A stretch of DNA of 64,000 bases from an uncultured Clostridia bacterium (GTDB lineage: Bacteria; Bacillota; Clostridia; TANB77; CAG-508): contig CALXQH010000043.1 in assembly GCA_944390525.1 (NCBI GenBank), positions 1,988 through 65,987 of the forward strand, given 5' to 3'. A program made the position numbers and the translations under genes. Each line of letters opens with the position of its first letter. Positions within the stretch are counted from its first letter, which is position 1. The notes under the pieces were generated by a model that worked only from the letters and a program-made list of their open reading frames with translations, had not been told where the DNA came from and did no database searches. Of this stretch, positions 9,148-61,095 are shown one piece after another.

Positions 9148-9199
9148 TTTCAAAAAAATGTTTAGTAAAGCTAAATATTTTTTTATTTACAAACATTAT

Positions 9200-9276: not shown

Positions 9277-9284
9277 TTATTTAT

Positions 9285-10013: not shown

Positions 10014-10042
10014 AAAAAAGACGATTATTTATCGTCTTTTTC
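10014..10042. terminator. Bidirectional terminator hairpin between convergent genes
   Basis: aaaaagacgat-tattt-atcgtcttttt. The stop codon of the minus-strand ligase lies within the hairpin. Confidence 0.6.
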
Positions 10043-43987: not shown

Positions 43988-45088
43988 ATGATTATAGATA
44001 TGAACTATTGGGGAAAAGTGGTAAAAAATATAATTATATTAGCTTTATCTATTTTGGGATTTTATTTAGGATTTAGACTAGCTATATTTTACATACCTTT
44101 TTTAATAGCTTTTATAATATCTCTTATATTAGAACCTTGTATTAGATTTATTATGAGAAAAACTAAACTAAAACGAAGAACTAGTTCAATAATTATATTT
44201 GTAATAGCTATACTAATTATTGTAGGGATTTTAATATGGACATCTATAACACTTGTGTCAGAAGCATACAATTTACTTACTAATTTAAATGATTATATTG
44301 AACAGATATATAGATTAATACAAAACATTATCTCAAAAATTGACTTTAATAAATTACAAATACCAGATAATATTATGAGTACAATACAAAGTTCTGCTAT
44401 GGAATTTTTAGGGAATTTGACTAATTGGGCTAAAGATGCACTAACAAATGCTGTCAATTTTCTTACTTCTGTACCAACAATAGGTGTATATACTGTTGTT
44501 ACTATATTATCATTATATTTTATATGTGTAGATAAAGTATATATGATAGATCAATTAGAGCATCATATGCCACAAACGTGGGTAAAAAAAATAGGAATAC
44601 ATTTAAAAGAACTTACACAATCTTTAGGAGCATATTTAAAAGCAGAACTTATTTTAGTTTTTATATCATTTATCATTACATTAGTTGGATTATACATTTT
44701 ACATTTTGCAGGATTAAATATACAATATCCTTTAATAATGGCTTTAATTATTGGATTTATTGACTTATTACCAATTTTTGGTTCTGGAACTTTTATGATT
44801 CCATGGGCTGTAATAACAGCATGTACAGGAGATTACACCTTAGCTATAAGCATTCTAATACTATGGGCTATTATGTCTGTAGTTAGACAGTTAATAGAAC
44901 CTAAAATTGTTAGTGGTAAAATAGGAATACATCCAATATTTACTTTAATTGCAATGTACACAGGATTTAAATTTTTAGGTGTAACAGGAATGATTATAGG
45001 ACCAATTTTATTAATTATTTTAAAAAATGTATTTTCTACTTTTATTGATAAAGGTTTGTTTAAATCTATATTTGAAAGACAAATATAA
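43988..45088 (+). CDS. ytvI: AI-2E family transporter (sporulation membrane protein YtvI-like)
   Basis: 366 aa with 8 TM helices. The N-terminal pattern is like YtvI, and an AI-2E/PerM-type C-terminal region is present. Confidence 0.6.
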   Translation: MIIDMNYWGKVVKNIIILALSILGFYLGFRLAIFYIPFLIAFIISLILEPCIRFIMRKTKLKRRTSSIIIFVIAILIIVGILIWTSITLVSEAYNLLTNLNDYIEQIYRLIQNIISKIDFNKLQIPDNIMSTIQSSAMEFLGNLTNWAKDALTNAVNFLTSVPTIGVYTVVTILSLYFICVDKVYMIDQLEHHMPQTWVKKIGIHLKELTQSLGAYLKAELILVFISFIITLVGLYILHFAGLNIQYPLIMALIIGFIDLLPIFGSGTFMIPWAVITACTGDYTLAISILILWAIMSVVRQLIEPKIVSGKIGIHPIFTLIAMYTGFKFLGVTGMIIGPILLIILKNVFSTFIDKGLFKSIFERQI

Positions 45089-45127
45089 AAAAATGAATTT
45101 TCAGTTTTAAATTGAAAATTCATTTTT
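45088..45127. terminator. Bidirectional terminator between convergent genes
   Basis: aaaaatgaattttca...ttgaaaattcattttt. Confidence 0.6.
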
Positions 45128-45133
45128 CTAATA

Positions 45134-45676
45134 CTAAAAAATATTTATTGTTGGTACAAAAGATTCGTCCGGAGGATAAACATATTCATCAGAAGGTTTA
45201 TCAATTTCTTGTATCTTCTCAATTTTAATAATAGGCATATCTCCATGATAATTACCTTTAGTAATTTTACCTTCAATCTCAATCCAAGTACAATCTTCAT
45301 ATTTTTTTATGTCTTCATATTCACACAAAAATCCTACCACAACTGTTTGAAAATCAGAAGAAATAACCATATCCCTAGCTAATACAAATTGATTTTGATT
45401 AAAATCTGTCATTCTATATACATATCCTGAAAATTTTATTTGTTGACCTACATATTCGTCTATATTATTATGAACAGTTTGTAAAACATTAGTATAATTA
45501 ATAACAGTTAGTTCTTGAACTTTTGAAAAATTTATATCATCATTTGTTTTAAAAAAATTATTTCCTAAAATACGATAAATAACAATAATTGTTATTATTA
45601 TTATTATTGCAAATAAAATACCTAAAAATATTTTTCCTAATTTATTTCCATTTACTTTTAAATTACAAATAAACAT
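45134..45676 (-). CDS. Hypothetical N-terminally membrane-anchored protein (180 aa)
   Basis: One TM helix, then a soluble domain. No motifs I can assign. Confidence 0.4.
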   Translation of the reverse strand: MFICNLKVNGNKLGKIFLGILFAIIIIITIIVIYRILGNNFFKTNDDINFSKVQELTVINYTNVLQTVHNNIDEYVGQQIKFSGYVYRMTDFNQNQFVLARDMVISSDFQTVVVGFLCEYEDIKKYEDCTWIEIEGKITKGNYHGDMPIIKIEKIQEIDKPSDEYVYPPDESFVPTINIF

Positions 45677-45841
45677 TTTTTAACCATCCTTTATATATCT
45701 AATTATTAAAATGTATGAAGAAAAAAGAAAAGATATTCTATTTCAAGTACAAATTTTTTATTAATCCTATATTTTTCTTGCGATTTTACTGCAAAAGTGA
45801 TATAGTATGATAGAATAATATTTTGGAAAGGAAAATAACAA

Positions 45842-48580
45842 ATGGGATTATTTAAAACATATAGTCAAAAAGAAGTTAGAAGAGTAAAGCCAATAGTAGA
45901 AAAAATAAATAATTTAGAATCTGAAATTGAAAAGTTAACAGATGAAGATTTAAGAAATAAAACTCTAGAGTTTAAAAAAAGAATACAACAAGGAGAAACC
46001 CTAGATAGCATTCTACCAGAAGCTTTTGCTGTTGTAAGAGAAGCATCAAAAAGAGTATTAGGAATGAGACATTTTGACGTTCAATTAATAGGAGGAATAA
46101 TATTGCACCAAGGAAGAATAGCAGAAATGAAAACAGGTGAAGGAAAAACTCTTGTTGCAACATTGCCTGTATATTTAAATGCTTTAACAGGAAAAGGAGT
46201 CCATGTTGTTACAGTTAATGATTACTTAGCTAAAAGAGATAGCGAATGGATGGGAAAAGTATATAAATTTTTAGGATTAACAGTTGGGTTAGTTATTAGT
46301 GGAATGAATCCAGAATTAAAAAGAGCAGCATATAATGCAGATGTAACATATGGTACTAACAATGAATTTGGCTTTGATTATTTAAGAGATAATATGGTTA
46401 TATATAAAGAACAATTAGTACAAAGAGAATTAAATTATGCTATAGTTGATGAAATTGATAGTATTTTGATAGATGAAGCACGTACTCCTCTAATTATATC
46501 AGGAAGAGGAGCTCAATCATCAGATTTATATAAAAGGGCTAATAACTTTGTATCAAAATTATCTCCTAAAATTTTAGTAGAAGAAGATATAAAAAATGAA
46601 GAACAAGCTGAAGATAATGAGAACTATGATTATATAGTTGATTTAAAAGCAAAATCTGCTTCATTAACTCAGAAAGGTATTCAAAAAGCAGAAAGAGAAT
46701 TTAATTTAGAGAATTTTAATGATATTGAAAATTCTGAGTTAGTACATAATATTAACCAAGCTCTAAGAGCACATGGGATTATGAAAAAAGATATAGATTA
46801 CATAGTTAAAGATGGAGAAGTCCTTATAGTAGATGAGTTTACTGGAAGAATTATGTATGGAAGAAGATATAATAATGGACTTCATCAAGCTATTGAAGCT
46901 AAGGAACATGTAAAAATTGCGGATGAATCTAAAACTTTAGCAACAATTACTTTTCAAAATTATTTTAGAATGTATAATAAACTTGCAGGAATGACTGGTA
47001 CTGCTATGACAGAAGAAGCAGAATTTGAAGAAATATATAAATTAGACGTAATAGAAATTCCAACTAATAGAGAAATGATACGTAAAGATCATCCAGACAT
47101 TATTTATAAAAATGAAAATGCAAAATTTAAAGCGGTTATAGAAGATATTAAAAGAAGCTATGAAAAAGGGCAACCTGTATTAGTAGGTACTGTTTCCATA
47201 GAAAAATCTGAAAAATTGAGTAATATGCTAAAAAAAGAAGGAATTAAACATCAAGTTTTAAATGCTAAATTTCATGAAAAAGAAGCTGAAATTATAGCAC
47301 AAGCAGGAAAATTTGGAACTGTTACAATAGCTACAAATATGGCAGGACGTGGTACTGATATTATGCTTGGTGGTAACGGTGAATATTTGGCAAAACAAGA
47401 AATGAGAAAATTTGGCTATACAGAAGAACAAATTGAACAAGCAACAGCTTTTAACGAAACATCAGATGAAACAGTATTAACTTCAAGAAATAAATTTAAA
47501 GAATTAAAAAATAAATTTGAAAATGAAATTAAAGATGAAAAACAAAAAGTAATAAATGCTGGAGGCTTAAAGATTATTGGTACAGAAAGACACGAATCTA
47601 GAAGAATTGATAACCAGCTTCGTGGACGTAGCGGACGTCAAGGAGATATTGGAGAATCAAGATTTTATATAGGATTAGATGATGACTTAATGAAAATTTT
47701 TGGTGGAGATATAATTACTAAAGTTTATGATACTCTTGGAGCAGATGAAAACATGCCTATTGAATCAAAAATAATATCTAATGCAGTAGAAAATGCTCAA
47801 AAGAAAGTAGAAGGTAGAAATTTTAGTATTCGTAAAAATGTTCTTTCTTATGATGATGTTATGAATGTACAAAGAGGAATTATATATGATGAAAGAAGAA
47901 AGGTACTAAATGGAGAAAACTTAAAAGAACATATTAATAAAATGATGTGTTCTTTAGCAGAACAAACTATAAATGAATATTTATCAGATGCTGATAACAT
48001 GAACATTGAAGGATTTATACAAGATATTAAAGAAATATATGGTATTTCAGATTTAGACTCTCTTCATAAAGATAAAATTAAAATAAATGAAATAACTGAA
48101 GAATTAGAAAATAAAATTAATAATATTTATGAAGAGAAAGAAAAGATTATTGGTGAAAACAACATGAGAGAACTTGAAAGAGTTATTATGTTGAAAATAG
48201 TTGATGAAAGATGGATGGACCATATAGATGCAATGGATGAATTAAAAGATGGAATAGGGCTTCAAGCATATGGACAAAAAGATCCTGTCGTTCAATATAG
48301 AATTGAAGGTTTTGATATGTTTGAGCAAATGAACTTAGACATTCAAACTGATGTTGTAAAATTTTTAATGAATGCTCGAAAAAGAGAAGGAGAAGTTCAA
48401 AGGACATCTTCAGTAAAAATCACGGGAGAAGGATTAGATGATACTGTTTCAAAAGAATTAGGTGTAAATTCTCAAAAAACATCAAATACAACAGTAGTAA
48501 AAGAAGAACCAAAAGTTGGCAGAAACGATCCTTGTCCATGTGGAAGTGGTAAGAAATATAAACAATGTTGTGGAAAATAG
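45842..48580 (+). CDS. secA: Preprotein translocase ATPase SecA
   Basis: 912 aa with DEAD-like motor motifs ([19 protein letters not shown]) and a C-terminal zinc-binding [14 protein letters not shown]. Confidence 0.95.
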
Positions 48581-48662
48581 TATAAAATGAAGAATATAAA
48601 GATGTATATAGAAAAGTAAATAATAATTTTATAAAATTAAGTAAAAAAGGAGCTTTATAAAT

Positions 48663-49082
48663 ATGCAAGACTTAATGAAAACAAATTGTTTGGAAGTAAA
48701 TGATACAATAATTATCGTTGGAAGTTGTATAGAAAGAATGCAACCAGAAGCATATAAAGAACTAGAAAAAATATCAAATAATATATATGAAGTTTGTTTA
48801 GAAAAAGAACATTTAAATATGGTTATTACAAAATTAATAGGAATGGTTTCAAGAGCAAAACTTAATAAAATAATATTTGCTACAGTTGACAAATCTCCTC
48901 ATTGTATACAACTTCATTACATAATAAAAGAAATAAAAAAAGCTATAGATTTAAATAGTATAAAAGTTTTGAATTATGTAGCAGTTGATAATAAATTAAT
49001 TGAAATTCCTAATGAAATTATTAGTTTATCAAAGAATTTCTCTAAGTTATTAGAATTTAGAGAATTATTATACAATAAATAA
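48663..49082 (+). CDS. Hypothetical protein (139 aa)
   Basis: RBS aaaggag. First gene of the insertion between secA and prfB. Confidence 0.35.
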   Translation: MQDLMKTNCLEVNDTIIIVGSCIERMQPEAYKELEKISNNIYEVCLEKEHLNMVITKLIGMVSRAKLNKIIFATVDKSPHCIQLHYIIKEIKKAIDLNSIKVLNYVAVDNKLIEIPNEIISLSKNFSKLLEFRELLYNK

Positions 49083-49137
49083 GGGTATTTTAATTAATAC
49101 ATATATTTGAGAGCAAAATAAATTATAAAGTGAAATA

Positions 49138-49161
49138 ATGACAAAGTCTTCTATTTGTCAT
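49138..49161 (+). promoter_or_regulatory. Perfect 8-bp-arm palindrome (ATGACAAA-N8-TTTGTCAT), a candidate operator upstream of the first NDT-like gene
   Basis: Seen directly in the sequence. Located 30 nt upstream of the ATG. Confidence 0.3.
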
Positions 49162-49190
49162 CAAAAAATAAAAAGGAGGAATTTAAAACT

Positions 49191-49604
49191 ATGAACAAAA
49201 TTTTTATAATATGTAGTAAAGCTTTTTATAAGGATATAGCACCAATTAAAGAAAAATTAAAAGAAAATGGTTGGGAAGTATTTTTACCACATACATATGA
49301 AAATCCTAATGCTGAAAAAGAATGGTATACTAAAGGAAAAGAAGAACATGCAAAAATGAAAGGCGAAATGTTTAGAAAAAGTAGAGATAGAATAAAATCA
49401 ATGGATGCAGTATTAACTTTAAATTTTGATAAAAACGGAAAAAAGAATTATATTGGTGGTTCAACATTTCTTGAACTATATGAAGCTTTTATGGAAAATA
49501 AAAAGATATATTTATGGAATGAAATACCAGAGGGAATTTTATTTGACGAGATAAGTGGATTCGCACCTGAAATTATTAATGGAAATTTAGATTTAATAAA
49601 ATAG
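49191..49604 (+). CDS. Small protein resembling nucleoside 2-deoxyribosyltransferase (NDT fold), copy 1
   Basis: Conserved blocks IICSKAFY, MDAVLTLNF and GGSTFLELYEAF, with a Glu in the position of the NDT catalytic Glu. Paralog of 57589..58011. Confidence 0.45.
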   Translation: MNKIFIICSKAFYKDIAPIKEKLKENGWEVFLPHTYENPNAEKEWYTKGKEEHAKMKGEMFRKSRDRIKSMDAVLTLNFDKNGKKNYIGGSTFLELYEAFMENKKIYLWNEIPEGILFDEISGFAPEIINGNLDLIK

Positions 49605-49632
49605 AGATAAATTAAAAAATAGGTAACTTCCC

Positions 49633-49674
49633 AAAATACTAAGAAATGTAATATTACATTTCTTAGTATTTTTC
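49633..49674 (+). terminator. Strong rho-independent terminator
   Basis: aatactaagaaatgtaat/attacatttcttagtatt followed by a T-run. Confidence 0.7.
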
Positions 49675-49878
49675 GAAGATAGTGCAATTTTAGAAATACT
49701 CAAGTTAAAAAAGGTCTGCAAACTTTAGTAACAAACACTATATAAAAGTAATTTAATTAAAAATTTAAAAAACAGTTTGGATAAATCTTATACAAATTAA
49801 AATATTTTAAGCGGTAAGTATATGAAATTTTCTTCTTTTAGTATATAATAATATAAAAGAAAAATATAAAGGAGATGA

Positions 49879-50652
49879 ATTAAAATTAAAGAATTTGAAG
49901 CAAAAAAAGAAACTGAAAAAGTTATTGAATTTATACGAGAATATTATAAGAAAAATAATTTAGGAGGAGCCATAATTGGAATCTCTGGAGGAAAAGACAG
50001 TGCAGTTGTTTCAGCCTTATTTACAAAAGCACTGGGAAGCGAAAATATAATTGGAGTAACAATGCCTTGTTATTCAAATATAGAAGATAAAATTGATGCT
50101 AAGCTTATTAGTGATTATTATGGATTTAAAATGATTAATTTTGATATTACAGGAATTTTTGATACTTTTAAAAATGAATTAAATAGTTTAGGAAATTTTT
50201 CTAAAGAAGATGTAAAAAACAGTGATATTAATCTAAAACCAAGACTTAGAATGACAACTCTTTATTATTTAGCTGCATTATATAGTACTATTAAGAAAAA
50301 AACTTATTTAGTAGTTGGTACATCTAATAAATGTGAATTATATGTAGGTTATTTTACTAAGGGAGGAGATTCTGTTCACGATATATCTCCAATAGCAGAT
50401 TTTACTGTTGAAGAGGTAATAAAAATTGGAGAATATTTAAAAGTTCCATCAAAAGTACTTTATAAAACTCCAAATGATGGTTTATCTAATAAAAATGATG
50501 AAGATAAATTAGGAGTGAAATACAGTCAAATAGCATCTTATATAAAAGATAAAAATAGTGTTGATGAGAAAACAAAGAAAAAGATAGAGCAACTACATAA
50601 CAATAGCAAACATAAATTTGAAATTCCAATTTATAGAAAAGGTGGACAATAA
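49879..50652 (+). CDS. nadE: NH3-dependent NAD+ synthetase. The start codon is uncertain: there is no in-frame ATG/GTG/TTG, and an ATT start or a 1-nt indel is possible.
   Basis: Open frame IKIKEFEAKKETEKVIEFIREYYKK...GISGGKDSAVV (PP-loop SGGxDS) continuing into the tracked ORF 50062..50652. The ATG at 49875 is out of frame by +1. Confidence 0.6.
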   Translation: MKIKEFEAKKETEKVIEFIREYYKKNNLGGAIIGISGGKDSAVVSALFTKALGSENIIGVTMPCYSNIEDKIDAKLISDYYGFKMINFDITGIFDTFKNELNSLGNFSKEDVKNSDINLKPRLRMTTLYYLAALYSTIKKKTYLVVGTSNKCELYVGYFTKGGDSVHDISPIADFTVEEVIKIGEYLKVPSKVLYKTPNDGLSNKNDEDKLGVKYSQIASYIKDKNSVDEKTKKKIEQLHNNSKHKFEIPIYRKGGQ

Positions 50653-50653
50653 G

Positions 50654-51193
50654 ATGAAAATAGGAGTATTTGTAGGAACTTTTGATCCAATACATAAAGG
50701 ACATACAGATATAATTAACTATTTAATAAAAGAAAAAATAGTTGATAAAGTATTGGTTATTGCAACTGGTAATTATTGGGACAAACAAAATATAACAGAC
50801 TTAAAAATAAGATTAGATATGTTAAACTTAATAAAGAATAATGACATAATAATTGATAAAAAACATAATAAATTAAAATATACTTATCAAATATTAGATA
50901 ATTTAAAAAAAGAAAACAAAGAGCATGAATTCTATCTGATAATAGGAGCTGATAATGCCAAGCTACTTTATAAATGGGAACATTTTAATGAATTAATAGA
51001 AAATAATATAATAGTTATAGCAAGAAATAATGAAAAAATAAATTTAAAAACAGAAAAAATGATAATTATAGATAAAAATTTTGGAAATATATCATCTACC
51101 AAAATAAGAAATGATATTGAAAAATATAAAGAATATATAAACAAAAATGTTTATTATTATATAAAAAAGAATAATATATATAATTCAAATTAA
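50654..51193 (+). CDS. nadD: Nicotinate-nucleotide adenylyltransferase
   Basis: GTFDPIHKGH (HxGH) motif and ISSTKIR. RBS aaggtgg. Sits 1 nt after the nadE stop. Confidence 0.75.
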   Translation: MKIGVFVGTFDPIHKGHTDIINYLIKEKIVDKVLVIATGNYWDKQNITDLKIRLDMLNLIKNNDIIIDKKHNKLKYTYQILDNLKKENKEHEFYLIIGADNAKLLYKWEHFNELIENNIIVIARNNEKINLKTEKMIIIDKNFGNISSTKIRNDIEKYKEYINKNVYYYIKKNNIYNSN

Positions 51194-51222
51194 TTAAACA
51201 TTTATGAAAGGAAAAATGAAAT

Positions 51223-51589
51223 ATGAGTTTTATAGGAAATATTTTATGGTTTATTTTTGGAGGTATTTTTAGTGGATTATCTTGGATTTTATCAGGAATA
51301 ATTTGGTGTGTAACTATTGTTGGAATTCCTTATGGATTACAATGCTTTAAATTTGCATCACTTTCATTTGCTCCATTTGGAAAAGAGGTAGAATATGGTG
51401 GAGGAGTAACATCGTTATTTGCAAATATAATATGGATTATATTTTTTGGTATTCCAATGGCTTTAGAAAATATAATTTTAGGTTGCATATGGTGTATAAC
51501 AATAGTAGGAATACCTTTTCGGGTTACAGTTTTTTAAAATTGCAAAATTGTCTTTAGCACCTTTTGGAGCAAAAATAGTATATAACTAA
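51223..51589 (+). pseudogene. YccF-like (DUF307) inner membrane protein, disrupted by a +1 frameshift near 51520
   Basis: Repeat 1 reads GIPYGLQCFKFASLSFAPFG. Repeat 2 continues only in the +1 frame as ...PFGLQFFKIAKLSLAPFGAKIVYN*. Removing c51520 restores a full-length protein. Confidence 0.5.
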
Positions 51590-51612
51590 AGAGTTTAAAG
51601 GAGTGAAATTTT

Positions 51613-52512
51613 GTGAAAACAGAAAAAAGTATTTTAATAGCTTTTATCTTAAATTTATTATTTTCATTACTTGAATTAATAGGCGGAATATTTACCAATA
51701 GTATATCAATAATATCTGATGCAATCCATGATTTTGGAGATGCATTAAGTATAGGAATATCATTAGTATTAGAAAAAATAAGCAAAAAGAAACCAGATAA
51801 AAAATATACTTATGGATATGCTAGATATTCAGTGCTTGGAGCATTAATAACAACTATTATATTAACAATAGGTTCTATATTTGTAATACTAGGTGGAATA
51901 AACAGAATTTTAAAACCTGAAATAATTAACTATAATGGAATGATTATTTTTGCTATATTTGGAGTAATAATTAATTTTCTTGCCACTTATTTTACAAGAA
52001 AAGGGGATTCAATAAATCAAAAAGCAGTAAATTTACATATGCTTGAAGATGTATTAGGTTGGATAGTAGTATTAATAGGTTCTATACTCATGAAGTTTAC
52101 AAACATTTTAGTAATAGATTCTATTATGTCCATAGGTATAGCAATATTTATATTTATTAGTGCTTACAAAAATTTAAAAGATATTTTAGATTTATTTTTA
52201 GAAAAAACACCTAAAAATATATCTGTAGAAGAAATTAAAAAATCTTTATTAAATATAAAAGATATAATAGATGTTCATCACATTCATATATGGAGCATAG
52301 ATGGTTTTACTAATTATTCAACAATGCATATTGTTACTGAAAATAAAAACGTAAAAGAATTAAAAAGTCAAATAAGAAATGAAATGTGTAAACAAGGCAT
52401 TTCTCATACAACAATAGAAATAGAAGATAAAAATGATAATTGTGATGAAAAAGAATGTGAAATTAAGATTAATAATAAAGAAAATCATCAGCATCAGCAT
52501 CATCACCATTAG
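51613..52512 (+). CDS. czcD: Cation diffusion facilitator family transporter (Zn/Co/Cd efflux, CzcD-like). Uses a GTG start.
   Basis: 6 TM helices with the HD...D metal site, and a C-terminal His-rich tail NHQHQHHHH. Confidence 0.8.
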   Translation: MKTEKSILIAFILNLLFSLLELIGGIFTNSISIISDAIHDFGDALSIGISLVLEKISKKKPDKKYTYGYARYSVLGALITTIILTIGSIFVILGGINRILKPEIINYNGMIIFAIFGVIINFLATYFTRKGDSINQKAVNLHMLEDVLGWIVVLIGSILMKFTNILVIDSIMSIGIAIFIFISAYKNLKDILDLFLEKTPKNISVEEIKKSLLNIKDIIDVHHIHIWSIDGFTNYSTMHIVTENKNVKELKSQIRNEMCKQGISHTTIEIEDKNDNCDEKECEIKINNKENHQHQHHHH

Positions 52513-52563
52513 AAATATAAAAGGTGAAAATACGATTAAAATAAGAAAGGAATTAAAGCAATT

Positions 52564-52773
52564 ATGAAAGAAATAAATTTAAAAGTAAATGGAATGCACT
52601 GTAAAGGATGTGAAAATAGAATTAAAAATTTATTAAGTACAATAGATGGAGTTGATGAAGTTATTGCAAATCACATTAATGGTACAGTTGTAATTAAAGC
52701 AAATAAAGAAATTGATTTAAAAAAAATAAGAGAAATAATAGATGATTTAGGATTTGAAGTTGAGGAAAATTAA
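52564..52773 (+). CDS. copZ: Heavy-metal-associated copper chaperone
   Basis: 69 aa with the HMA motif GMHCKGC. Confidence 0.75.
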   Translation: MKEINLKVNGMHCKGCENRIKNLLSTIDGVDEVIANHINGTVVIKANKEIDLKKIREIIDDLGFEVEEN

Positions 52774-52775
52774 AT

Positions 52776-54983
52776 ATGAAAAATATTATATTAGTAATAG
52801 AAGGAATGACTTGTAGTGCTTGCTCTAATGGATTAGAGAAATATTTAAATAAACAAAATGGAGTAATAAATGCAAATGTAAATCTTGTAATGGCAAATGC
52901 AAATATTGATTATGATGAAAATATCTTAGACCAAGAAAAAATTGAAAAATATGTAAAACAAGCAGGATTTAAAAGTGGAGGAATTTTTAAAGAATTTAAA
53001 ATTGAAAAAGAAAATAAAACTGAAAAAATAAAATTTATAGTATTTTCAATATTAGCAATAATTCTAATGTATATATCAATGGGACACATGATAAATTTGC
53101 CGCTTCTTGCAGTATTTAATTCACGTACAAACCCTATTATTTATACAAGTTCATTATTTATATTAACAGTTCCATTTTTAATTTACGGATATGATATTTT
53201 AAAAAATGGATATAAAAATTTAATACACAAAATTCCAAATATGGATACATTAGTATCAATAGGGGTAATTAGTAGTTTTATATATAGCTTATATGGAATG
53301 TTTAAAATAATAAAAGGTGATTATAGCTATATAATGAGTTTATATTTTGAATCATCAGCTATAATAATTTATTTTGTGAAACTTGGAAGATATCTAGATG
53401 GCGTTAATAAAGATAAAACCAAAGAAGCAATAAAAAAATTAGTGGAGATAACGCCAAGTAAAGCTACTATTGAAATAAATGGAAAAGAAAAAGAAATAAC
53501 TTTAGATGAAATAAAGAAAGATAATATATTAATAAGTAAACCAGGAGAAAAAATAGCGGTTGATGGTGAAATAATAGAGGGTAAAGCACATCTAGACGAA
53601 TCTTTTATTACAGGAGAAAGCAAACCGATAATGAAAAAAGATGGAGAAAAAGTTATTGCAGGGAGCCTTAATTATGACGGATTCATAAAATATAAAGCAG
53701 AAAAGATAGGCAAAGAGTCAACTATATCAGAAATAATCAGATTAGTTATAGAAGCAAGCAATACCAAATCACCAATAGCAAAAATTGCAGATAAAATTTC
53801 AGGATATTTTGTACCAACTGTATTAGCTATATCAATAGTAACATTAGTTGTATATTTATTGTTAGGTTTTAATTTATCTACTGCTATTTCAACATTTGTT
53901 ACAATACTCGTAGTAGCTTGTCCATGCAGTTTAGGATTAGCTACACCACTTGCTATAGTTGTAAGTGAGGGTATATGTCTTAGCAATGGAATATTAGTGA
54001 AGAAAAGTGAAATATTAGAAACGGCCTCAAAAATAAATACTATAGTTTTTGACAAAACAGGAACATTAACTTATGGAAAACTTAAAATTTTCAAGATATA
54101 TAATTATAGTAATCTTAAAAATAAAGAACTTTTGCAGATAGTAGGAAGTATAGAAGTAAAGTCAACGCATCCAATTGGAAAAGCTTTTTCAGACTATATT
54201 AATGAAAATAAACAAGTTAAATTAGTGGTAAATAACTTTGAAAATATGACAGGATATGGTATTATAGGAGAAATTCAAAATCAAAAGTATATATTAGGTA
54301 ATAGAAAAATAGTAGAAAAATTTTCCATTGCAAATACTCATATAGAAGATGAGAAAGAATTAACGGCAAAAGGAAATAGTATTATTTATGTTATTAAAAA
54401 TGAAGAAATAATAGCTTTAATTGGAGTAAATGATATTGTAAGAAAAAATGCTAAGGAAACTATAAAAAAATTAAATCAAAAGAATATTAAAACTATTATG
54501 CTCACAGGAGATAATAAAGAAACAGCTGAAAATATAGGAAAAGAAATAGGAATTTCAGAAATTATTTCTAATGTATTACCATCAAAAAAAGCAGAAATAA
54601 TAAAGAAGTTAAGAAAAGAAAATAAAAAAGTAATGATGTGCGGAGATGGAATAAATGATAGCCCAGCTTTAGCAAATAGTGATATTGGAGTAAGTGTAAA
54701 GAGTGGAACAGATATAGCAATAGATTCTGCTGATGTAATACTAATTAAAAATGACTTAAATTCTATTTTAAAATTGATAAATATAAGTGAAAATACAGTA
54801 AGAAATATAAAACAAAATTTATTTTGGGCATTTTTCTATAATGTATTAATGATACCTATAGGAATGGGAATATTAAGGCCAATAGGAATTTCAATAAATC
54901 CGATGATTGCTAGCCTAGCGATGATATTTAGTAGCCTTACTGTTATTACAAATGCTCTAAGTTTAAAAAAGTTAAATCTATAG
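52776..54983 (+). CDS. copA: Cu+-exporting P1B-type ATPase
   Basis: N-terminal HMA GMTCSACS, the CPC motif in TM6, DKTGT, YN and MxxSS in TM7/8, and GDGINDSPAL. Confidence 0.85.
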   Translation: MKNIILVIEGMTCSACSNGLEKYLNKQNGVINANVNLVMANANIDYDENILDQEKIEKYVKQAGFKSGGIFKEFKIEKENKTEKIKFIVFSILAIILMYISMGHMINLPLLAVFNSRTNPIIYTSSLFILTVPFLIYGYDILKNGYKNLIHKIPNMDTLVSIGVISSFIYSLYGMFKIIKGDYSYIMSLYFESSAIIIYFVKLGRYLDGVNKDKTKEAIKKLVEITPSKATIEINGKEKEITLDEIKKDNILISKPGEKIAVDGEIIEGKAHLDESFITGESKPIMKKDGEKVIAGSLNYDGFIKYKAEKIGKESTISEIIRLVIEASNTKSPIAKIADKISGYFVPTVLAISIVTLVVYLLLGFNLSTAISTFVTILVVACPCSLGLATPLAIVVSEGICLSNGILVKKSEILETASKINTIVFDKTGTLTYGKLKIFKIYNYSNLKNKELLQIVGSIEVKSTHPIGKAFSDYINENKQVKLVVNNFENMTGYGIIGEIQNQKYILGNRKIVEKFSIANTHIEDEKELTAKGNSIIYVIKNEEIIALIGVNDIVRKNAKETIKKLNQKNIKTIMLTGDNKETAENIGKEIGISEIISNVLPSKKAEIIKKLRKENKKVMMCGDGINDSPALANSDIGVSVKSGTDIAIDSADVILIKNDLNSILKLINISENTVRNIKQNLFWAFFYNVLMIPIGMGILRPIGISINPMIASLAMIFSSLTVITNALSLKKLNL

Positions 54984-55010
54984 AATTTAAAAATAGAAAT
55001 AAATTAAATT

Positions 55011-55517
55011 ATGAATTTTATTAAAATATTTGACTTAAAGTATACTTTTATTAAAGCCACAGTTACATCTACAATGTACGATATGACAAGAGTAAATGCT
55101 AATGGATATTTTGATAAAGGCGATAACGAAGAAACGCGATATCAAATGAAAAAAGCATTAAATGAGGAAAGAATAAGAGATTATAAAAATAATTCTTATG
55201 AAAGAGCTGATGGTTGCTTAGAATTACCTGTTCCAGATAATGTACCATTTTTCGTTAAAGATTATAGTGAGTATTATAAAGGTAGATGTTATCATAAGAG
55301 AAGTTTAAATTCTAATGAAGGGTGGAACAAAACTGGATATATGTCTTTTATAAATCAACCAATACTAAAATATAGTAATGAAATTAGAAGTGCTGTTTTA
55401 ATGATTCATGGAGAAAAAGCGCACTTTTGCTATTTTAGTAAAGATGCGTATAGAAATATGATAAAAGGTAGTAAATATACACATAATAAAGAATTATTGA
55501 ATAAGGAAAAAAATTAG
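55011..55517 (+). CDS. Hypothetical protein, possibly a gene remnant
   Basis: It has no SD. The C-terminal LMIHGEKAHF resembles the catalytic-His region of an alpha/beta hydrolase. Confidence 0.3.
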   Translation: MNFIKIFDLKYTFIKATVTSTMYDMTRVNANGYFDKGDNEETRYQMKKALNEERIRDYKNNSYERADGCLELPVPDNVPFFVKDYSEYYKGRCYHKRSLNSNEGWNKTGYMSFINQPILKYSNEIRSAVLMIHGEKAHFCYFSKDAYRNMIKGSKYTHNKELLNKEKN

Positions 55518-55531
55518 GAGAAAAAGCTTAA

Positions 55532-56071
55532 ATGAGAAAAAAGATAATTATAATAACTATAATATCAAGTATTATTATTATGGTAGGAATATCTGTGAAG
55601 AATTTGATGGATAATAAAAAAGATAAAGAAAATATTCTTATAGAAGATACATATTCTAATAATAGTAATGATGAAAATGAAGAAATAATAAATGATGAGG
55701 AGAAAAATAAAATTATGCAATTGTATTTAAAAATTAATAATAGAACTTTAACAGTATTATTAGAAAATAATTCATCAGTAGATGCATTAATAGATAAATT
55801 AAAACAAAATGATATTACAATAAATATGAGAGATTATGCTAATTTTGAAAAAGTAGGAGAGCTAGAATTTGAATTACCACGAAATGATAAACAGATTACA
55901 ACACAAGCAGGAGATATAATTTTATACCAAGGAAATTCAATAACTATTTATTATGACGTTAATAGTTGGAGTTTTACAAAGTTAGGGAAAATACAAAAAA
56001 TTACTCAAGATGAATTAAAAGATATATTAGGTACAGGGAACGTAATAGTTACATTTTCTTTAAAAAAATAA
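55532..56071 (+). CDS. Hypothetical N-terminally anchored extracytoplasmic protein (179 aa)
   Basis: Signal/TM segment with RBS ggag. No assignable motifs. Confidence 0.35.
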   Translation: MRKKIIIITIISSIIIMVGISVKNLMDNKKDKENILIEDTYSNNSNDENEEIINDEEKNKIMQLYLKINNRTLTVLLENNSSVDALIDKLKQNDITINMRDYANFEKVGELEFELPRNDKQITTQAGDIILYQGNSITIYYDVNSWSFTKLGKIQKITQDELKDILGTGNVIVTFSLKK

Positions 56072-56164
56072 ATTATTTAACACTCTCTTTTAAGAAAGAA
56101 CTTTACAAAATGATTATGGAATAATATAATACAGTTGTAAATATCTTTATGGAGGAATTTAAAA

Positions 56165-56731
56165 ATGAGAAAAAACATTAAAACATCTGAAGCAATATTT
56201 CCTATGCCTGTATTAATGATAGCAACATATAATGAAGATGGAAGTATTGATGTAATGAATGCAGCCTGGGGAACAATGTTAAGTAAAAATCAAGTAATAT
56301 TAAATTTAACAGAAACACATAAGACTGTTAAAAATATTAAAACAAGAAAAGCATTTACTGTTAGTATTGCTGATAGTAAACATGTTGTAGAAGCAGATTA
56401 TTTTGGAATAGTGTCGGCCAATAATACTCATAATAAATTTGAAAATAGTGGATTAACAGCAACAAAATCAGAAAATGTAGACGCACCGATTATAAACGAA
56501 TTTCCTATTTGTCTTGAGTGTGAATTTATAGAATACCAAGCTGATGAATATGGATGTGGAGTAATAGGAAAAGTAGTAAATGTAACTGCAGATGAAAATG
56601 TAATGAATGGAGAAAATGTTGATATTGAATTAGTTAATGCTATTACATTTGATCCATATACTCATGGATATTATAAAGTTACTGAAAGAGTTGGAAATGC
56701 CTTTAAAGACGGGCTACAACTAAAAAAATAG
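56165..56731 (+). CDS. Flavin reductase-like FMN-binding protein
   Basis: N-terminal MPVLMIATYNEDGSIDVMNAAWG is typical of the flavin reductase-like domain. Confidence 0.65.
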   Translation: MRKNIKTSEAIFPMPVLMIATYNEDGSIDVMNAAWGTMLSKNQVILNLTETHKTVKNIKTRKAFTVSIADSKHVVEADYFGIVSANNTHNKFENSGLTATKSENVDAPIINEFPICLECEFIEYQADEYGCGVIGKVVNVTADENVMNGENVDIELVNAITFDPYTHGYYKVTERVGNAFKDGLQLKK

Positions 56732-56741
56732 TAATGAAATT

Positions 56742-56778
56742 AAAAGACAGATAGTTTATTGAAAATTATCTGTCTTTT
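56742..56778 (+). terminator. Rho-independent terminator
   Basis: aaaagacagata...tatctgtctttt. Confidence 0.7.
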
Positions 56779-56917
56779 AATATATAATCAAAACAATAAT
56801 TAGTGCAATATATTAAAAAATACAAATGATGATAAGAAATATAACAACATAACTATTTAGAGATAATTAATATCAATTAGTATTAAAAATGCATATTATA
56901 ATTTAGGAGGGATAAAA

Positions 56918-57427
56918 ATGTATTCAGATTATTATAATATGTATAATCAATATTATGGCTTTAATGACCAAAATTATAGAAGTAATGAGAATCAAACGAG
57001 TAATGAAGAAATAATTACTTTAAATCAAGCTATAGACTTAATTAGACAATCTGTAGAAAATGAAAAAGAAGATGAGATGTTTTATGATACTATAATAAAA
57101 CAAGCACCAACAGAAAAAGAAAAAGACATAATAAGAAGTATTAGAGATGATGAAAAAAAACATAATCAAATTTTAAGAAAATTATATTATGAATTTACAG
57201 GACAGATACTACCAGTAGATACTTTAGCAAACGAATTAAATAATATTATGGACTACAAATTGAATTTAGAAAAAGCTTTATTTGGTGAATTAGATGCAGT
57301 AGTAAAATATAGAAAAATAATGGGAACAATGCCAAGTGGTAGTAGTTATACATTACTTATGTCTATTATGACAGATGAGCTAAGACATGCAAATAAATAT
57401 AATTTTTTAATACACAATGCAAAATAG
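56918..57427 (+). CDS. Ferritin-like / rubrerythrin-type four-helix-bundle protein with a Tyr-rich N-terminus. Possibly a spore coat protein.
   Basis: ExxH-like pairs (EKEDEMFYD...EKKHNQ, ELDAVVKY...DELRHA) and the N-terminal YSDYYNMYNQYYG. Confidence 0.45.
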   Translation: MYSDYYNMYNQYYGFNDQNYRSNENQTSNEEIITLNQAIDLIRQSVENEKEDEMFYDTIIKQAPTEKEKDIIRSIRDDEKKHNQILRKLYYEFTGQILPVDTLANELNNIMDYKLNLEKALFGELDAVVKYRKIMGTMPSGSSYTLLMSIMTDELRHANKYNFLIHNAK

Positions 57428-57464
57428 AAACTTAAATAGAATATAAAAATGCATTGTAGCATTA

Positions 57465-57494
57465 CCCAGTGTCTAAAAACACTGGTTTTTCTTT
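57465..57494 (+). terminator. Rho-independent terminator
   Basis: ccagtgt-ctaaaa-acactgg followed by tttttctttt. Confidence 0.7.
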
Positions 57495-57528
57495 TGATTA
57501 AAACAAGATATATTATATCACTTTATAT

Positions 57529-57557
57529 TTGCATTTTTTTCATTATTCTATTATAAT
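57529..57557 (+). promoter_or_regulatory. Sigma-A promoter for the NDT-like/MTase/nuclease operon
   Basis: TTGCAT, 17 nt spacer, TATAAT, located 31 nt upstream of the ATG. Confidence 0.45.
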
Positions 57558-57588
57558 ATAAACATATATTAATTGGGAGAAATTAAAA

Positions 57589-58011
57589 ATGAAAATATTA
57601 ATTATTTGTAGTAAAAAATTTTATTCAAAAATAGAAGAAATTAAATATAAATTAGAGAAAGCAGGCCACATTATATATTTACCAAACTGTTATGATGATC
57701 CGTCAACTGAAGAAAAAATGAAAAGTTTGGGAAAAAAGGAACACCAATTATTTAAGGCAAAAATGTTTAAACAAAGTGAAAATACCATAAAAGAAATGGA
57801 CGCTGTATTAGTTTTAAACTTTAACAAAGAAAAAAATGGTATAATTTATGAAAATTATATAGGTGGAGCAACATTTTTAGAAATGTATGATGCTTTTAAA
57901 AATAATAAAAAAATATTTTTATATAATGATATTCCTGAAGGAATGTTGTTTGATGAAATAGAAGGTTTTGCACCTATAATAATAAATGGTAATTTAAACA
58001 ATGTTAAATAA
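57589..58011 (+). CDS. Small protein resembling nucleoside 2-deoxyribosyltransferase, copy 2. First gene of the operon with the MTase.
   Basis: About 55% aa identity to copy 1. Blocks ILIICSKKFY, MDAVLVLNF and GGATFLEMYDAF. Confidence 0.45.
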   Translation: MKILIICSKKFYSKIEEIKYKLEKAGHIIYLPNCYDDPSTEEKMKSLGKKEHQLFKAKMFKQSENTIKEMDAVLVLNFNKEKNGIIYENYIGGATFLEMYDAFKNNKKIFLYNDIPEGMLFDEIEGFAPIIINGNLNNVK

Positions 58012-58035
58012 TAAACATAATTCAAAGGAGAAACT

Positions 58036-59250
58036 ATGAACAACGAAATTTACATAGGAGACAATTATGACGTTTTATCTAATAAGAAATTTAGAGATAA
58101 ATATATAAATAAATTAAAATTGATTTATATAGATCCTCCATACAATACCTTAAATCAAAAGTCTTATAAAGATAAAACAGATAGTAACTATTGGGCTGAA
58201 TTTATTGAATGTAGATTGCAGCTTTCTAAAGATTTACTAAAAGAAGATGGAGTAATTTTTATTAGTATTGATGATAATGAGTTTGCTTCTTTAAGAATTA
58301 TTTGTGATAAAATTTTTGGTAAAGAAAATTTTGTGGGAACGTTTATAACCCAACAAGCACAAAGAAGTAATGCAAAATACATTAATACGGTACATGAATA
58401 TATAATTTGTTTTGCTAAAAACAAAAAAAAGCTTCAAAAGTTTCAAGTAAATAGAATGGAAATACCAGAAGACAATAAAATGATTACAAAACTTAAGACA
58501 GAAATAAAAGAAATATATAATACCGAAGGATATAAAGAGGCCAATAAAAAAATTAAAGATATTATAAAAAATTATTGTGAAGAATATGGTATTTCATGGT
58601 TACGAAATTATTCAAATGTAGACGAAAATGGAAGAATATATTTTGCTGTTGATTTATCTACACCTAGTAATCCACGAGAAGTAAATATTCCTGAAATAGG
58701 TTTAAAACTAGATCCTTTACAAACAAGAGGTTGGATAAGTGATAAAAGATTTATAGAATTATTCAATAAAAAAAGGTTATGTTTTAAGGGAAATAGACCA
58801 TATTCAAAATTATACATAGAAGAAGCAATGGATAATGCTCCATCTATACTAAAATTTTACTCACGTCATGGAACAAATGATTTAAAAAAGTTAGGATTAG
58901 ATGATTTATTTGATACACCTAAACCTGTAGAACTAATAAAATTTCTAATTAGAATTTCTACAAAACCGGAAGACATTGTTTTAGATTTTTTTGCTGGTTC
59001 TGGAACAACTGCACAAGCTGTTTACGAATTAAATTCAGAAGAAAACAGAAATAATAGTTATATTTTAGTACAAATAGACGAAAAAATAGATTCTAAAACC
59101 TCAGTCTACAAAAAATGTAAAGAATTAAAAATAACCCCAAGCATGAAAAATATATTAACATACAGAATAGATACTTTTTTAAAAAAACAAAATATAAAAA
59201 AAGATTATACTTTATATGAAGAAATGGAAGAGAAAATAAATGAACAATGA
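58036..59250 (+). CDS. Beta-class DNA methyltransferase (N6-adenine or N4-cytosine, PF01555-like)
   Basis: Motif IV IDPPYNT lies upstream of motif I FFAGSGTTAQA, the circular permutation typical of the beta class. An insert of about 250 aa between them is a likely TRD. Confidence 0.8.
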   Translation: MNNEIYIGDNYDVLSNKKFRDKYINKLKLIYIDPPYNTLNQKSYKDKTDSNYWAEFIECRLQLSKDLLKEDGVIFISIDDNEFASLRIICDKIFGKENFVGTFITQQAQRSNAKYINTVHEYIICFAKNKKKLQKFQVNRMEIPEDNKMITKLKTEIKEIYNTEGYKEANKKIKDIIKNYCEEYGISWLRNYSNVDENGRIYFAVDLSTPSNPREVNIPEIGLKLDPLQTRGWISDKRFIELFNKKRLCFKGNRPYSKLYIEEAMDNAPSILKFYSRHGTNDLKKLGLDDLFDTPKPVELIKFLIRISTKPEDIVLDFFAGSGTTAQAVYELNSEENRNNSYILVQIDEKIDSKTSVYKKCKELKITPSMKNILTYRIDTFLKKQNIKKDYTLYEEMEEKINEQ

Positions 59251-59899
59251 AGATTTAAAATTATTTGAAAAAGGAAATTATCAAAATATTAATCAAAATT
59301 TTATAGAAGAAGGAAAAACAGTTTTACAAGAATTGCAAAAAGTACAAGAAAAATATGATAAACTTGATACAGATACTTTTATAAATGAACTTAGAGATTC
59401 AATAGCAGGTTATACTTTAGGTTTTAACCTAGTTAATGTAGAAAAACATGGTTTTGACTGTAAGAGTAATAATTTATATTTAGAAGTTAAATCTGCAAGC
59501 TTTTCTTCAGAATCTTGGCAAGCAACATTTAATGATACAACATTAGAAAAAGCAGAAGCGTTTAAAGATAAGAAAGTATTTTTAGCTTTAGCAGTTTGGA
59601 AAGGTGCAAGTGATCTACTATTTATTTGTTATGGTCAAAATGAAAAAATAGGAAAATTTTTAGAAAAAAAAGTAAAATGGTTTAAAGATGGAAATACTGT
59701 TAGAAGTACTCAATCTATACCTTTAACAAAATTAGTATTTGATTATGGCTTTAATATATTAGCTGTTAATAGATCAAAAAAAGAAATACTTTCTATGCTT
59801 AAAAATAAAAATACAAAATTTAAAAAATTACAAGAAGATGACATTATAAGTATTGAAGAATTTAATGTATTTAAGATAAAGGATGTGGTACAATGTTAG
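59240..59899 (+). CDS. Candidate PD-(D/E)xK nuclease (putative restriction endonuclease partner)
   Basis: GFD-x10-EVK arrangement (D...E-x-K). It overlaps the MTase by 11 nt. Its stop overlaps the prfB start (ATGTTAG). Confidence 0.4.
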   Translation: MNNEDLKLFEKGNYQNINQNFIEEGKTVLQELQKVQEKYDKLDTDTFINELRDSIAGYTLGFNLVNVEKHGFDCKSNNLYLEVKSASFSSESWQATFNDTTLEKAEAFKDKKVFLALAVWKGASDLLFICYGQNEKIGKFLEKKVKWFKDGNTVRSTQSIPLTKLVFDYGFNILAVNRSKKEILSMLKNKNTKFKKLQEDDIISIEEFNVFKIKDVVQC

Positions 59900-61003
59900 A
59901 ATTAGAAGAAAATTTGAAGAGCCTACAGGAATTTAAAAAGCGTTTAGAACAAATAGGTGATTCACTTTGATGTAAATTATAAGGAACAAGAATTAAAAAA
60001 ATTAGAACAATTAACAACACAAAATAATTTTTGGAATGATATTAATAATAGTTCTAAAATTTTAAAACAAATAAATAGCTTAAAATCTAAATTAGAAGAA
60101 TATAGAAAGTTAAATGTACAACTTAATAATTTAATTGATATTAATAATCTTTTACAAATGGAATTAGATGTAGATTTATTTAAAGAGTTATTAAAATCTA
60201 CAACTATTTTAGAAAAAGATATAGAAAAATTAGAAATAACAACATTATTACATGGTAAATATGATTATAATAATGCCATTATAACAATTCATCCGGGTGC
60301 AGGAGGAACAGAAGCTCAAGATTGGGCAGAGATGCTTTATAGAATGTATTCAAGATGGGCAAACAATAATGGCTATCAAATAAAAGAACTAGACTATCTT
60401 GAAGGAGATGAAGCTGGCCTTAAAAGTGTTACTTTTAGTATTAATGGAGCATATGCATATGGCTATCTTAAGGGAGAAATGGGAGTTCATCGTTTAGTTA
60501 GAATTTCTCCTTTTGATGCTGGAGGGAGAAGACATACATCATTTGCTTCTATAGAGGTTCTACCAGAAATAACAGAAGATATTGAAATAGAAATTAATCC
60601 AGATGATTTAAGAATTGATACATACCGTGCTTCAGGTGCAGGAGGGCAACATATAAATAAAACATCTTCTGCTATTAGAATTACACATATACCTACAAAT
60701 ATAGTAGTTTCCTGTCAATCAGAACGTTCTCAAATACAAAACCGAGAAACTGCAATGAAAATGCTTAAATCAAAATTATTAAATTTAAAAGAGCAAGAAC
60801 AAAAAAATACTATTGATGAACTAAAAGGAATTCAAATGGATATTGCTTGGGGAAGTCAAATTCGTTCGTATATATTCTGCCCATATACCTTAGTAAAAGA
60901 TCATAGAACGAACTATGAAGTAGGAAATGTACAGGCGGTAATGGATGGAGAAATAAATGGATTTATTGATAGTTATTTAAAACATAATTTAGAAAAATCT
61001 TAG
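59893..61003 (+). CDS. prfB: Peptide chain release factor 2, with the programmed +1 frameshift at codon 26
   Basis: Frame 0 reads MLELEENLKSLQEFKKRLEQIGDSL then UGA. The +1 frame continues DVNYKEQELKKLEQ... The GGQ motif SGAGGQHINKT and SPF-like region are present. Confidence 0.85.
59951..59972 (+). promoter_or_regulatory. prfB autoregulatory +1 frameshift site
   Basis: SD-like AGGUGA lies 3 nt upstream of the CUU UGA U slippery/stop context, as in E. coli prfB (AGGGGG..CUU UGA C). Confidence 0.8.
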
Positions 61004-61034
61004 AAGAGTATTGTTAATATAATACTCTTTTTTA
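61004..61034 (+). terminator. Rho-independent terminator after prfB
   Basis: aagagtatt...aatactctt followed by T6. Confidence 0.6.
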
Positions 61035-61095
61035 TGTTCTAAATAAGACAAGGCTTGAATATATATTATATATACTAATTTTAAGGAGTGATTTT

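Follow-up and report, generated by a model that had tools for sequence, protein, structure and literature searches.

What lies between secA and prfB in an uncultured Clostridia bacterium, and how did it come to be there? In a 64,000-nucleotide stretch of contig CALXQH010000043.1 (GenBank assembly GCA_944390525.1, positions 1,988–65,987; the window, whose own coordinates are used throughout), the two genes are separated by an interval of 11,312 bp holding 15 open reading frames (ORFs). All 15 are on the + strand, as are the two anchor genes and the signals described for the interval. The original prediction, made from the sequence alone, proposed either an old, partly decayed genomic island or a hotspot for accumulating cargo. 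It placed the end of secA at 48580 and the start of prfB at 59893, both of which are right as read from the sequence, and its list of the genes between them is upheld by Pfam, structure prediction, and a Protein Data Bank (PDB) match. Of these, the hotspot is much the better fit, since age and origin differ among the parts of the interval. It is quite probable that the interval is a layered mosaic, at a site between secA and prfB where, in this group of uncultured low-GC gut Clostridia, foreign genes have time and again come in, been exchanged, and disappeared.

A secA search taking one genome per species yielded 80 loci (L### denotes such a stretch of a relative) from uncultured gut Clostridia of the CAG:508, CAG:567, CAG:273 and CAG:452 types. 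The left core-gene anchor of the window, secA (45842–48580; 912-aa ORF), is 73–94% identical to the secA of these 80 genomes, and the hotspot is delimited across species of this uncultured clade, not within the pangenome of one species. The backbone order is conserved (AI-2E transporter [AI2E]–DUF1980–secA ... prfB–yabP–yabQ–divIC–rho), and the yabP|yabQ, yabQ|divIC, and divIC|rho gaps are all ≤0.5 kb. The secA–prfB gap measured by tblastn ranges from 117 bp to 9.6 kb in the 36 loci with both flanks and exceeds a 10-kb flank in at least 13 further loci (at least 49 species in total); the true intergenic spacer in L029 is 44 nt, and in Bacillus subtilis the two genes are adjacent. The intervals of the relatives contain 325 ORFs belonging to 221 families, 176 of them singletons (~64 species). 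The order and content of the window interval are therefore not common to its relatives, and the gene order is clearly not the same in all of them, the outcome under which the original prediction would have had to regard it as ancestral. The variable gap, the almost complete lack of common cargo, and the integrases 3′ of secA in 17 species (described below) together indicate that the secA–prfB junction is a clade-wide insertion hotspot flanked by core genes. About 12 of the 80 related contigs end within ~100 bp past secA, which fits population heterogeneity or repeats at this position.

Homology between the window and its relatives ends ~6–20 nt past the secA stop codon and that of the backbone restarts at 59877–59892, which is the prfB ribosome-binding site. 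The left junction or spacer (48581–48662) has no hairpin, and a TATAAA following the stop codon is the sole match there with L003 and L027.

The segment closest to prfB appears to be the oldest. The sister species (L001 and L094, which are one 27-kb contig; secA 94% identical to the window) has a secA–prfB interval of ~13.6 kb whose cargo (a transglycosylase, a polysaccharide deacetylase, VTC, DUF4956, Cthe_2159, ABC/FtsX, and a two-component system) is wholly unlike that of the window. This is followed by a 49-aa ORF, a 403-aa methyltransferase gene, and a gene for a 221-aa nuclease homologue placed directly on prfB. The 49-aa ORF corresponds to the second of two window genes for proteins resembling nucleoside 2′-deoxyribosyltransferase (NDT2; 57589–58011), reduced by an internal deletion of ~217 bp. 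Homology between the window and L094 begins at ~57520, at a conserved promoter-like site (TTTGCA-18-TATAAT, 57528–57557) marking the start of the old module and lying just past a terminator at 57466–57485, and from there through prfB and beyond the identity is uniform at 84–91%; sliding identity of the window against the sister species is flat. A third species (L186) has other cargo (two metallo-beta-lactamase-fold proteins, ABC, LysE, an unrelated cation diffusion facilitator, and NUDIX) and then the same methyltransferase–nuclease–prfB arrangement. The 7-nt stop/start overlap of the nuclease gene and prfB is kept in both L094 and L186. Synonymous divergence (dS) of the two genes between the window and L094 is 0.43–0.75 (0.40–0.51 for the backbone genes secA, yabP, and rho), and between the window and L186 it is 0.76 (0.71–0.86 for yabP and rho). 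Because these values are close to those of the backbone, the methyltransferase–nuclease pair is old and vertically inherited in at least three species, and NDT2 with its promoter is a layer shared with the sister species only (two species).

The two genes next to prfB are read as a putative type IIP restriction-modification (RM) system. The first (58036–59250) encodes a beta-class N6/N4 type II DNA methyltransferase (Pfam N6_N4_Mtase, PF01555, E = 1e-46; PADLOC MTase_II over its full length, E = 3e-104). The second (59240–59899, the last 7 nt overlapping the prfB start) encodes a 219-aa candidate restriction endonuclease of the PvuII fold (nuc219), for which no restriction endonuclease model matched in PADLOC, Pfam, or NCBIfam. 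It was identified through structure prediction, as was NDT2: its AlphaFold2 (AF2) model has a predicted local distance difference test score (pLDDT) of 88, and R.PvuII accounts for all of the model's best PDB matches (E = 9e-5, probability 1.0, TM-score 0.43–0.61); the PD-(D/E)xK assignment is a fold-level result. The residues D73...E82-x-K84 are invariant in 22 homologues. At least 410 homologues (62–95% identity), all annotated as hypothetical, are widespread in metagenome-assembled genomes (MAGs) of gut Clostridia and Bacilli, and in five of five further contexts looked at, three of them away from prfB, the gene is paired with a methyltransferase of 395–404 aa. The pair resembles PvuII-type type IIP systems in consisting of two genes, a PF01555 methyltransferase and a small D...ExK partner whose fold best matches R.PvuII, and in staying together across unrelated genomic contexts. 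The endonuclease differs from R.PvuII in being only 17–20% identical to it (TM-score 0.4–0.6) and in its length (219 aa vs 157 aa, with an extra N-terminal helical part), and the window pair lacks the C-protein gene of PvuII-type systems. Membership of NDT2 in the RM module was considered and rejected, as each is found without the other: elsewhere the RM pair has no NDT beside it, and NDT homologues have no RM genes beside them.

Upstream of this old segment are ~8.9 kb of cargo (48.6–57.5 kb) that are specific to this species and whose parts have separate histories. A hypothetical 139-aa protein of the AF_0155 type (hyp139, 48663–49082) has a precomputed match to PF27217 AF_0155 but none in the local Pfam and NCBIfam copies, and is absent from all 80 related loci. 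The first NDT-like gene (NDT1, 49191–49604) looks like a single gene exchanged between species: it has 91% nucleotide identity to L008 and L014, the homology is confined to 49167–49609, and its dS is 0.33–0.39 compared to 0.95–1.04 for secA in the identical genome pairs. It is followed by nadE (NAD synthetase with an ATT start, 49885–50652; Pfam NAD_synthase) and nadD (nicotinate-nucleotide adenylyltransferase, 50654–51193; Pfam CTP_transf_like; 179 aa in independent contigs), a unit that recurs in L102 in an unrelated context (70% and 65% identical). A yccF pseudogene or truncated gene (51223–51589; Pfam YccF) has 81.6% nucleotide identity to the intact 119-aa gene of L045 and a dS of 0.73, compared to 1.17 for secA of the same two genomes. 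Next are a czcD-type cation diffusion facilitator gene (51613–52512; Pfam Cation_efflux and ZT_dimer) and copZ–copA, encoding a copper chaperone and a P-type ATPase (52564–54983; Pfam HMA).

The copZ–copA genes are also present in the secA–prfB intervals of L002, L005, and L007, where they are mutually 96–97% identical and 56% identical to the window copA. SecA is 92–99% identical among these three and 88% identical to that of the window, so that copA would be expected at ~90% or more; the 56% found indicates that the window copZA is a xenologue, gained independently at the identical site. The histories of NDT1, yccF, copZA, and nadE–nadD thus argue for repeated, small-scale acquisition. The remaining cargo consists of a 5′-truncated alpha/beta-hydrolase remnant (55011–55517; 168 aa), a membrane-anchored cyclophilin-like protein (55532–56071; Pfam Cyclophil_like2, N-terminal anchor), a flavin reductase-like protein (56165–56731; Pfam Flavin_Reduct), and a ferritin/rubrerythrin-like protein (56918–57427; Pfam Rubrerythrin and Ferritin_2).

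The interval is also partly decayed, as originally described, with a frameshift, a changed start codon, a truncation, and strain-specific deletions. Frame disruptions had been proposed for both yccF and the nadE start, and that in yccF stands: an extra C at 51520 causes a +1 frameshift, the ORF stops at 51537, and the remaining 23 codons read on to 51589, identically in five independent assemblies. A frameshift in nadE was rejected, as nothing interrupts the frame at any point, the SGGKDS ATP-binding loop included, and its full-length product is 69% identical to L102 NadE, the closest intact homologue. The lesion is instead an ATG to ATT start change: the ATG of L102 nadE aligns with ATT at 49885 of the window, with an AAAGGAG Shine-Dalgarno (SD) sequence 10 nt upstream, and an ATG at 49875 is out of the nadE frame and abuts the SD (sequence identical in three independent assemblies). 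AUU start codons are known (e.g. infC), and nadE may be translated weakly from AUU or be newly dead. The hydrolase ORF begins 27 nt past the copA stop and corresponds to residues 195–328 of the 367-aa alpha/beta hydrolase PA2218 (2HDW, E = 3.5e-23), the 5′ half being lost. Three strains lack 55421–55516 (96 bp), between 11-bp direct repeats (GGAGAAAAAGC), and one strain lacks 55814–56104 (291 bp), between 10-bp direct repeats (ACAAAATGAT).

A route of entry is suggested by the relatives. The most numerous family in their intervals, with 25 ORFs spread over 17 loci, consists of tyrosine recombinases carrying Phage_integrase and Phage_int_SAM_3 (SAM_3) domains, whose genes mostly start 110–420 bp past the secA stop and are co-oriented with secA. 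Eight copies are intact (362–464 aa; L021, L048, L053, L054, L059, L062, L065, and L074), seven are fragmented within continuous sequence (L004, L005, L025, L027, L034, L057, and L071), and two are incomplete because the contig stops within them. The stretch from the secA stop to the integrase gene contains iterated short repeats (e.g. TTGTTTGCA, TTGTCCAC, and TTGTTGCCA), which look like candidate arm-type binding sites; in some loci, such as L044 (whole gap 253 bp) and L063, these repeats alone are left. Neighbours of the integrase genes encode ParA, ParB, a helix-turn-helix (HTH) protein of the HTH_36 family, an HTH_17 excisionase (Xis), IS110 transposases, RhuM, a Phd/YefM antitoxin, and a 1399-aa surface protein. 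L062 and L074 were considered as tandem elements, but each is one element with the arrangement int ... xis-int. A limited literature search found no published report of secA/prfB as an integration site.

The window itself has none of these signals. Integrase, transposase, or other remnants of mobile genetic elements are absent from it by tblastn with the relatives' integrase, ParAB, IS110, and RhuM (best E = 0.03), the island ORFs contain no Pfam mobility domains, and no integrase arm-type repeats are present at 48581–48662, in contrast to many relatives. No conjugation, mobilisation, replication, or phage genes are recognized by Pfam among the island ORFs. Neither a tRNA nor any other Rfam match that could be a target or a riboswitch is found in the region or at its borders, the only tRNAs of the window being at 9.0–9.4 kb. 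No direct repeats above chance flank the interval, whether 48561–48670 is compared with 59821–59900 or with the internal junction at 57431–57590: the longest word common to the flanks is 8 nt, compared to a shuffle mean of 8.4, and a general repeat search gives only low-complexity AT-rich pairs. The earlier report of no integrase, transposase, or flanking direct repeat by eye is thus borne out, and the short direct repeats suggested as worth seeking at the junctions do not emerge. There is no integrase and no repeated intergenic element indicative of an integron cassette array. The suggested comparison of composition likewise gives no signature; G+C content is 0.242 in the island and 0.260 in the backbone (p = 0.047), GC content at third codon positions (GC3) and codon-usage scores do not differ from the backbone, and composition was set aside as uninformative. 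Among the classical marks of an island derived from a mobile element, a mobility gene, an att or tRNA target, and atypical composition are missing and a sporadic distribution is present.

These observations suggest a series of events. The ancestral state would have had secA and prfB adjacent and co-transcribed, as is still seen in some relatives. The oldest layer would be the type II RM pair, wedged onto prfB and vertically inherited through at least three species, and the second would be NDT2 with the conserved promoter upstream of the RM pair, restricted to the sister species. A third layer, the ~8.9 kb of NAD synthesis, metal efflux, and redox cargo, would have been built from separately acquired pieces, including the single genes NDT1 and yccF exchanged between species and the xenologous copZA. 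Entry would be by tyrosine-integrase elements inserting just 3′ of secA, with subsequent loss of the mobility genes, and recombination anchored in the conserved flanking genes may contribute. The decay seen in the interval consists of small deletions between 10–11 bp repeats, a frameshift, a start-codon loss, and a 5′ truncation.

Several points weigh against this scheme. The window shows no entry route of its own, being without an integrase remnant, an att-like repeat, or a compositional anomaly. Site-specific targeting of the secA flank is inferred from recurrence, and no attL/attR pair is definable in the integrase-bearing relatives (L057 has no such repeat). The fragmented integrases come from MAGs and could partly be assembly errors. 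The dS values of NDT1 and yccF are near saturation and derive from short AT-rich genes (137 and 99 codons), so that they are meaningful only qualitatively. The label of accessory for nadE, nadD, and others rests on 64 kb, and these may be the only copies in the genome.

The contig could be an artefact of assembly or binning, a chimera fusing secA and prfB to unrelated DNA. In favour of this, the genome is evidently of metagenome type, numerous related contigs stop directly past secA, and the same-species metagenome contig L081 begins with 55 nt (positions 1–55) of unrelated GC-rich sequence joined at the copA DKTGT motif, the same point at which L087 terminates. L081 and L087 show a chimeric join or a break produced by assembly at a motif that is conserved universally. 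Against an artefact, 13 contigs drawn from a number of independent metagenome assemblies (among them BRZ_* and ONAT22) are 99.2–100% identical to the window and tile 44987–54070, 54074–58477, and 57349–60511, including both junctions. Only 54071–54073 is uncovered; the DKTGT motif, which is universally conserved in P-type ATPases, accounts for the contig termini at 54070 and 54074, and copA spans these positions as an uninterrupted 735-aa ORF. With the lesions in yccF and nadE also being identical across independent assemblies, the island is a genuine, stable feature of the species and an artefact is extremely improbable.

There are also two biological alternatives to the layered mosaic. A single integrative element (an integrative and conjugative element [ICE], an integrative and mobilisable element [IME], or a prophage remnant) could have come in by one event at the secA flank, its integrase and ends disappearing afterwards; relatives do carry integrase elements at exactly this site, several of them broken or reduced to arm repeats, and the window shows gene decay. 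However, the right 2.4 kb are shared with two other species, colinear, and diverged like the backbone whereas the left 8.9 kb are not, NDT1, yccF, and copZA have three different histories, and the window has neither direct repeats nor genes of conjugation, mobilisation, replication, or phage function recognizable by Pfam, so that one entry is an unlikely account. Alternatively, the gene order could be ancestral and differently lost in each lineage, without horizontal transfer. Deletion is clearly active in the region, the RM module is vertically inherited, and the composition is native-like, but this would need an ancestor with hundreds of genes at this position (176 singleton families in ~64 species). 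Relative to the backbone, the divergences of copA and NDT1 deviate in opposite directions; the site has integrases, Xis, IS110, and ParAB; and several species have secA and prfB adjacent, as does B. subtilis. Differential loss is very unlikely.

Insertion between secA and prfB bears on how prfB is transcribed. A long AT-rich hairpin (49627–49678; 29-nt arms, 90% complementary, dG −22.7 kcal/mol) is a likely terminator after NDT1, and an intrinsic terminator with a G+C-rich stem followed by TTTTTCTTTT (57466–57485) ends the species-specific cargo. Of the several strong terminators originally noted only these two hairpins are convincing, and none is found after secA in 48581–48662. In addition to the conserved site at 57528–57557, promoter-like sites precede the flavin reductase gene (56102–56130) and the ferritin-like gene (56759–56788). 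NDT2, the methyltransferase gene, the endonuclease gene, and prfB are successively spaced by 24 nt, −11 nt, and −7 nt; these tight spacings and the conserved site suggest that prfB is probably driven from the predicted promoter at 57528–57557 and co-transcribed with NDT2, methyltransferase, and endonuclease genes rather than with secA. A further, rather doubtful step is that the RM pair is now locked onto an essential gene, with prfB driven from the pair's predicted promoter (57528–57557) and the endonuclease stop overlapping the prfB start. If so, clean loss of the RM module would orphan expression of release factor 2 (RF2), which would explain how the module survived through three speciation events (dS ~0.8 at most) while the upstream genes turn over; capture of the expression signals of an essential host gene would then be a means of selfish RM persistence beside post-segregational killing.

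The right core-gene anchor, prfB (RF2; 59893–61003; Pfam PCRF and RF-1), starts with ATG at 59893, continues for 25 codons to CTT TGA (59965–59970), which an SD-like AGGTGAT precedes, and has its body in the +1 frame to 61003. This short frame-0 ORF ending in CTT TGA is the layout of a programmed autoregulatory +1 frameshift. The prfB|yabP junction is a second variable site in the relatives (115–6275 bp, median 1.4 kb, more than 1 kb in 22 of 31 loci; L002–L079) and is 'empty' in the window (92 bp, 61004–61095, with a terminator hairpin at 61005–61028). The AI2E|DUF1980 (≤6.8 kb) and DUF1980|secA (≤2.2 kb) gaps vary too.

Co-orientation of the 15 genes, correctly noted originally, is nothing special, since 63 of the 65 ORFs of the whole window are on the + strand and it is a property of the genome rather than of the island. 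The whole window is ~25% G+C with a positive GC skew. A tRNA-Val/Asp/Phe cluster (9072–9360) precedes a minus-strand gene (10025–11749; the window has only two such genes) that encodes a 574-aa AMP-binding enzyme and lies where the GC skew is reversed.

Five of the island ORFs have no profile match in Pfam or NCBIfam, and four proteins (hyp139, NDT1, NDT2, and nuc219) have no match in Pfam, NCBIfam, PADLOC, or PDB sequence searches. The NDT-like proteins belong to an unusually conserved family (70–86% identity) of at least 2685 members that is without a Pfam model, and sequence profiles (Pfam, NCBIfam, and PDB) match them neither to PF05014 nor to any other entry. The AF2 model of NDT2 (pLDDT 90.7) has as top PDB matches nucleoside 2′-deoxyribosyltransferase, DNPH1, and the CMP N-glycosidase BcmB (E ~5e-4, TM-score 0.5–0.6), with TIR and SLOG domains scoring close behind, and both window proteins are predicted to have an NDT/DNPH1-type Rossmann-like fold. 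Glu98 is invariant in 'GGxTFLE'; we take the beta1 'ICSK', 'DAVLVLN', and 'GGxTFLE' motifs to be in register with the NDT family, with Glu98 where the nucleophile Glu is expected. The predicted fold of NDT2 is thus like that of the NDT/DNPH1/BcmB superfamily, and the proteins differ from it in that C-S-K replaces the glycine-rich motif of the first strand.

The two NDT copies are the 2nd and 13th of the 15 genes and are 57% identical, with a saturated dS of ~1.07. Their bracketing of the island, as originally described, is coincidental; they are in different layers and are not true boundaries. Their homologues have no constant neighbour and occur in unrelated genomic surroundings. In L008 and L014 the NDT1-like gene precedes a 101-aa ORF (16344–16649 in L014) that starts MEVKVITICGSMRYSKEMM, has no profile match, and resembles a further small protein of NDT/DNPH1 type. 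In an unrelated genome (GCA_016282375.1; L182, 5001–8467) homologues of NDT2 (74%) and czcD (62%) are 2 kb apart, and accessory genes of these types may travel in similar company.

The findings have some practical consequences and leave current concepts unchanged. In this little-known group of uncultured gut Clostridia with small genomes, accessory functions (metal efflux, NAD synthesis, redox, and RM) are concentrated at a predictable place, making the secA–prfB site a useful marker for typing strains or species and for finding adaptive or defence genes in metagenomes. The hotspot would also explain why ~12 of 80 related contigs break just past secA. The integrase family recurring 3′ of secA and the large unannotated families of PvuII-fold endonucleases and NDT-like proteins deserve attention.

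Some integrative elements with tyrosine recombinases, for example in the streptococcal ICE and IME families, target the 3′ flank of conserved housekeeping genes. The loci of the 17 relatives are like these in having an integrase gene co-oriented with secA and mostly 110–420 bp downstream of it, with arm-like repeats before it and genes for ParA/ParB, HTH_36, Xis, or adhesins after it. Neither an attB core nor the far element end could be defined in these loci, and the window differs in having no integrase, arm repeats, or att repeat.

A closer likeness is to horizontal-transfer hotspots bounded by core genes (Oliveira, Touchon, Cury & Rocha 2017, PMC5635113). As in those, two core genes bound the interval across many genomes, the diversity of gene families is very high with fast turnover even between sister species, and some genomes contain mobile elements whereas many of the occupied sites have no recognisable mobility gene. 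The differences are that the secA–prfB site is defined across species, with one genome each, rather than in the pangenome of one species, and that the insertion point is inside an ancestral operon of two essential genes. The region is therefore ordinary in kind, an instance of such gene-exchange hotspots (PMC5635113) and not a new type of element, and what is notable is local: a site inside an essential-gene operon, a recurrent integrase family in the relatives, and an RM module that overlaps prfB.

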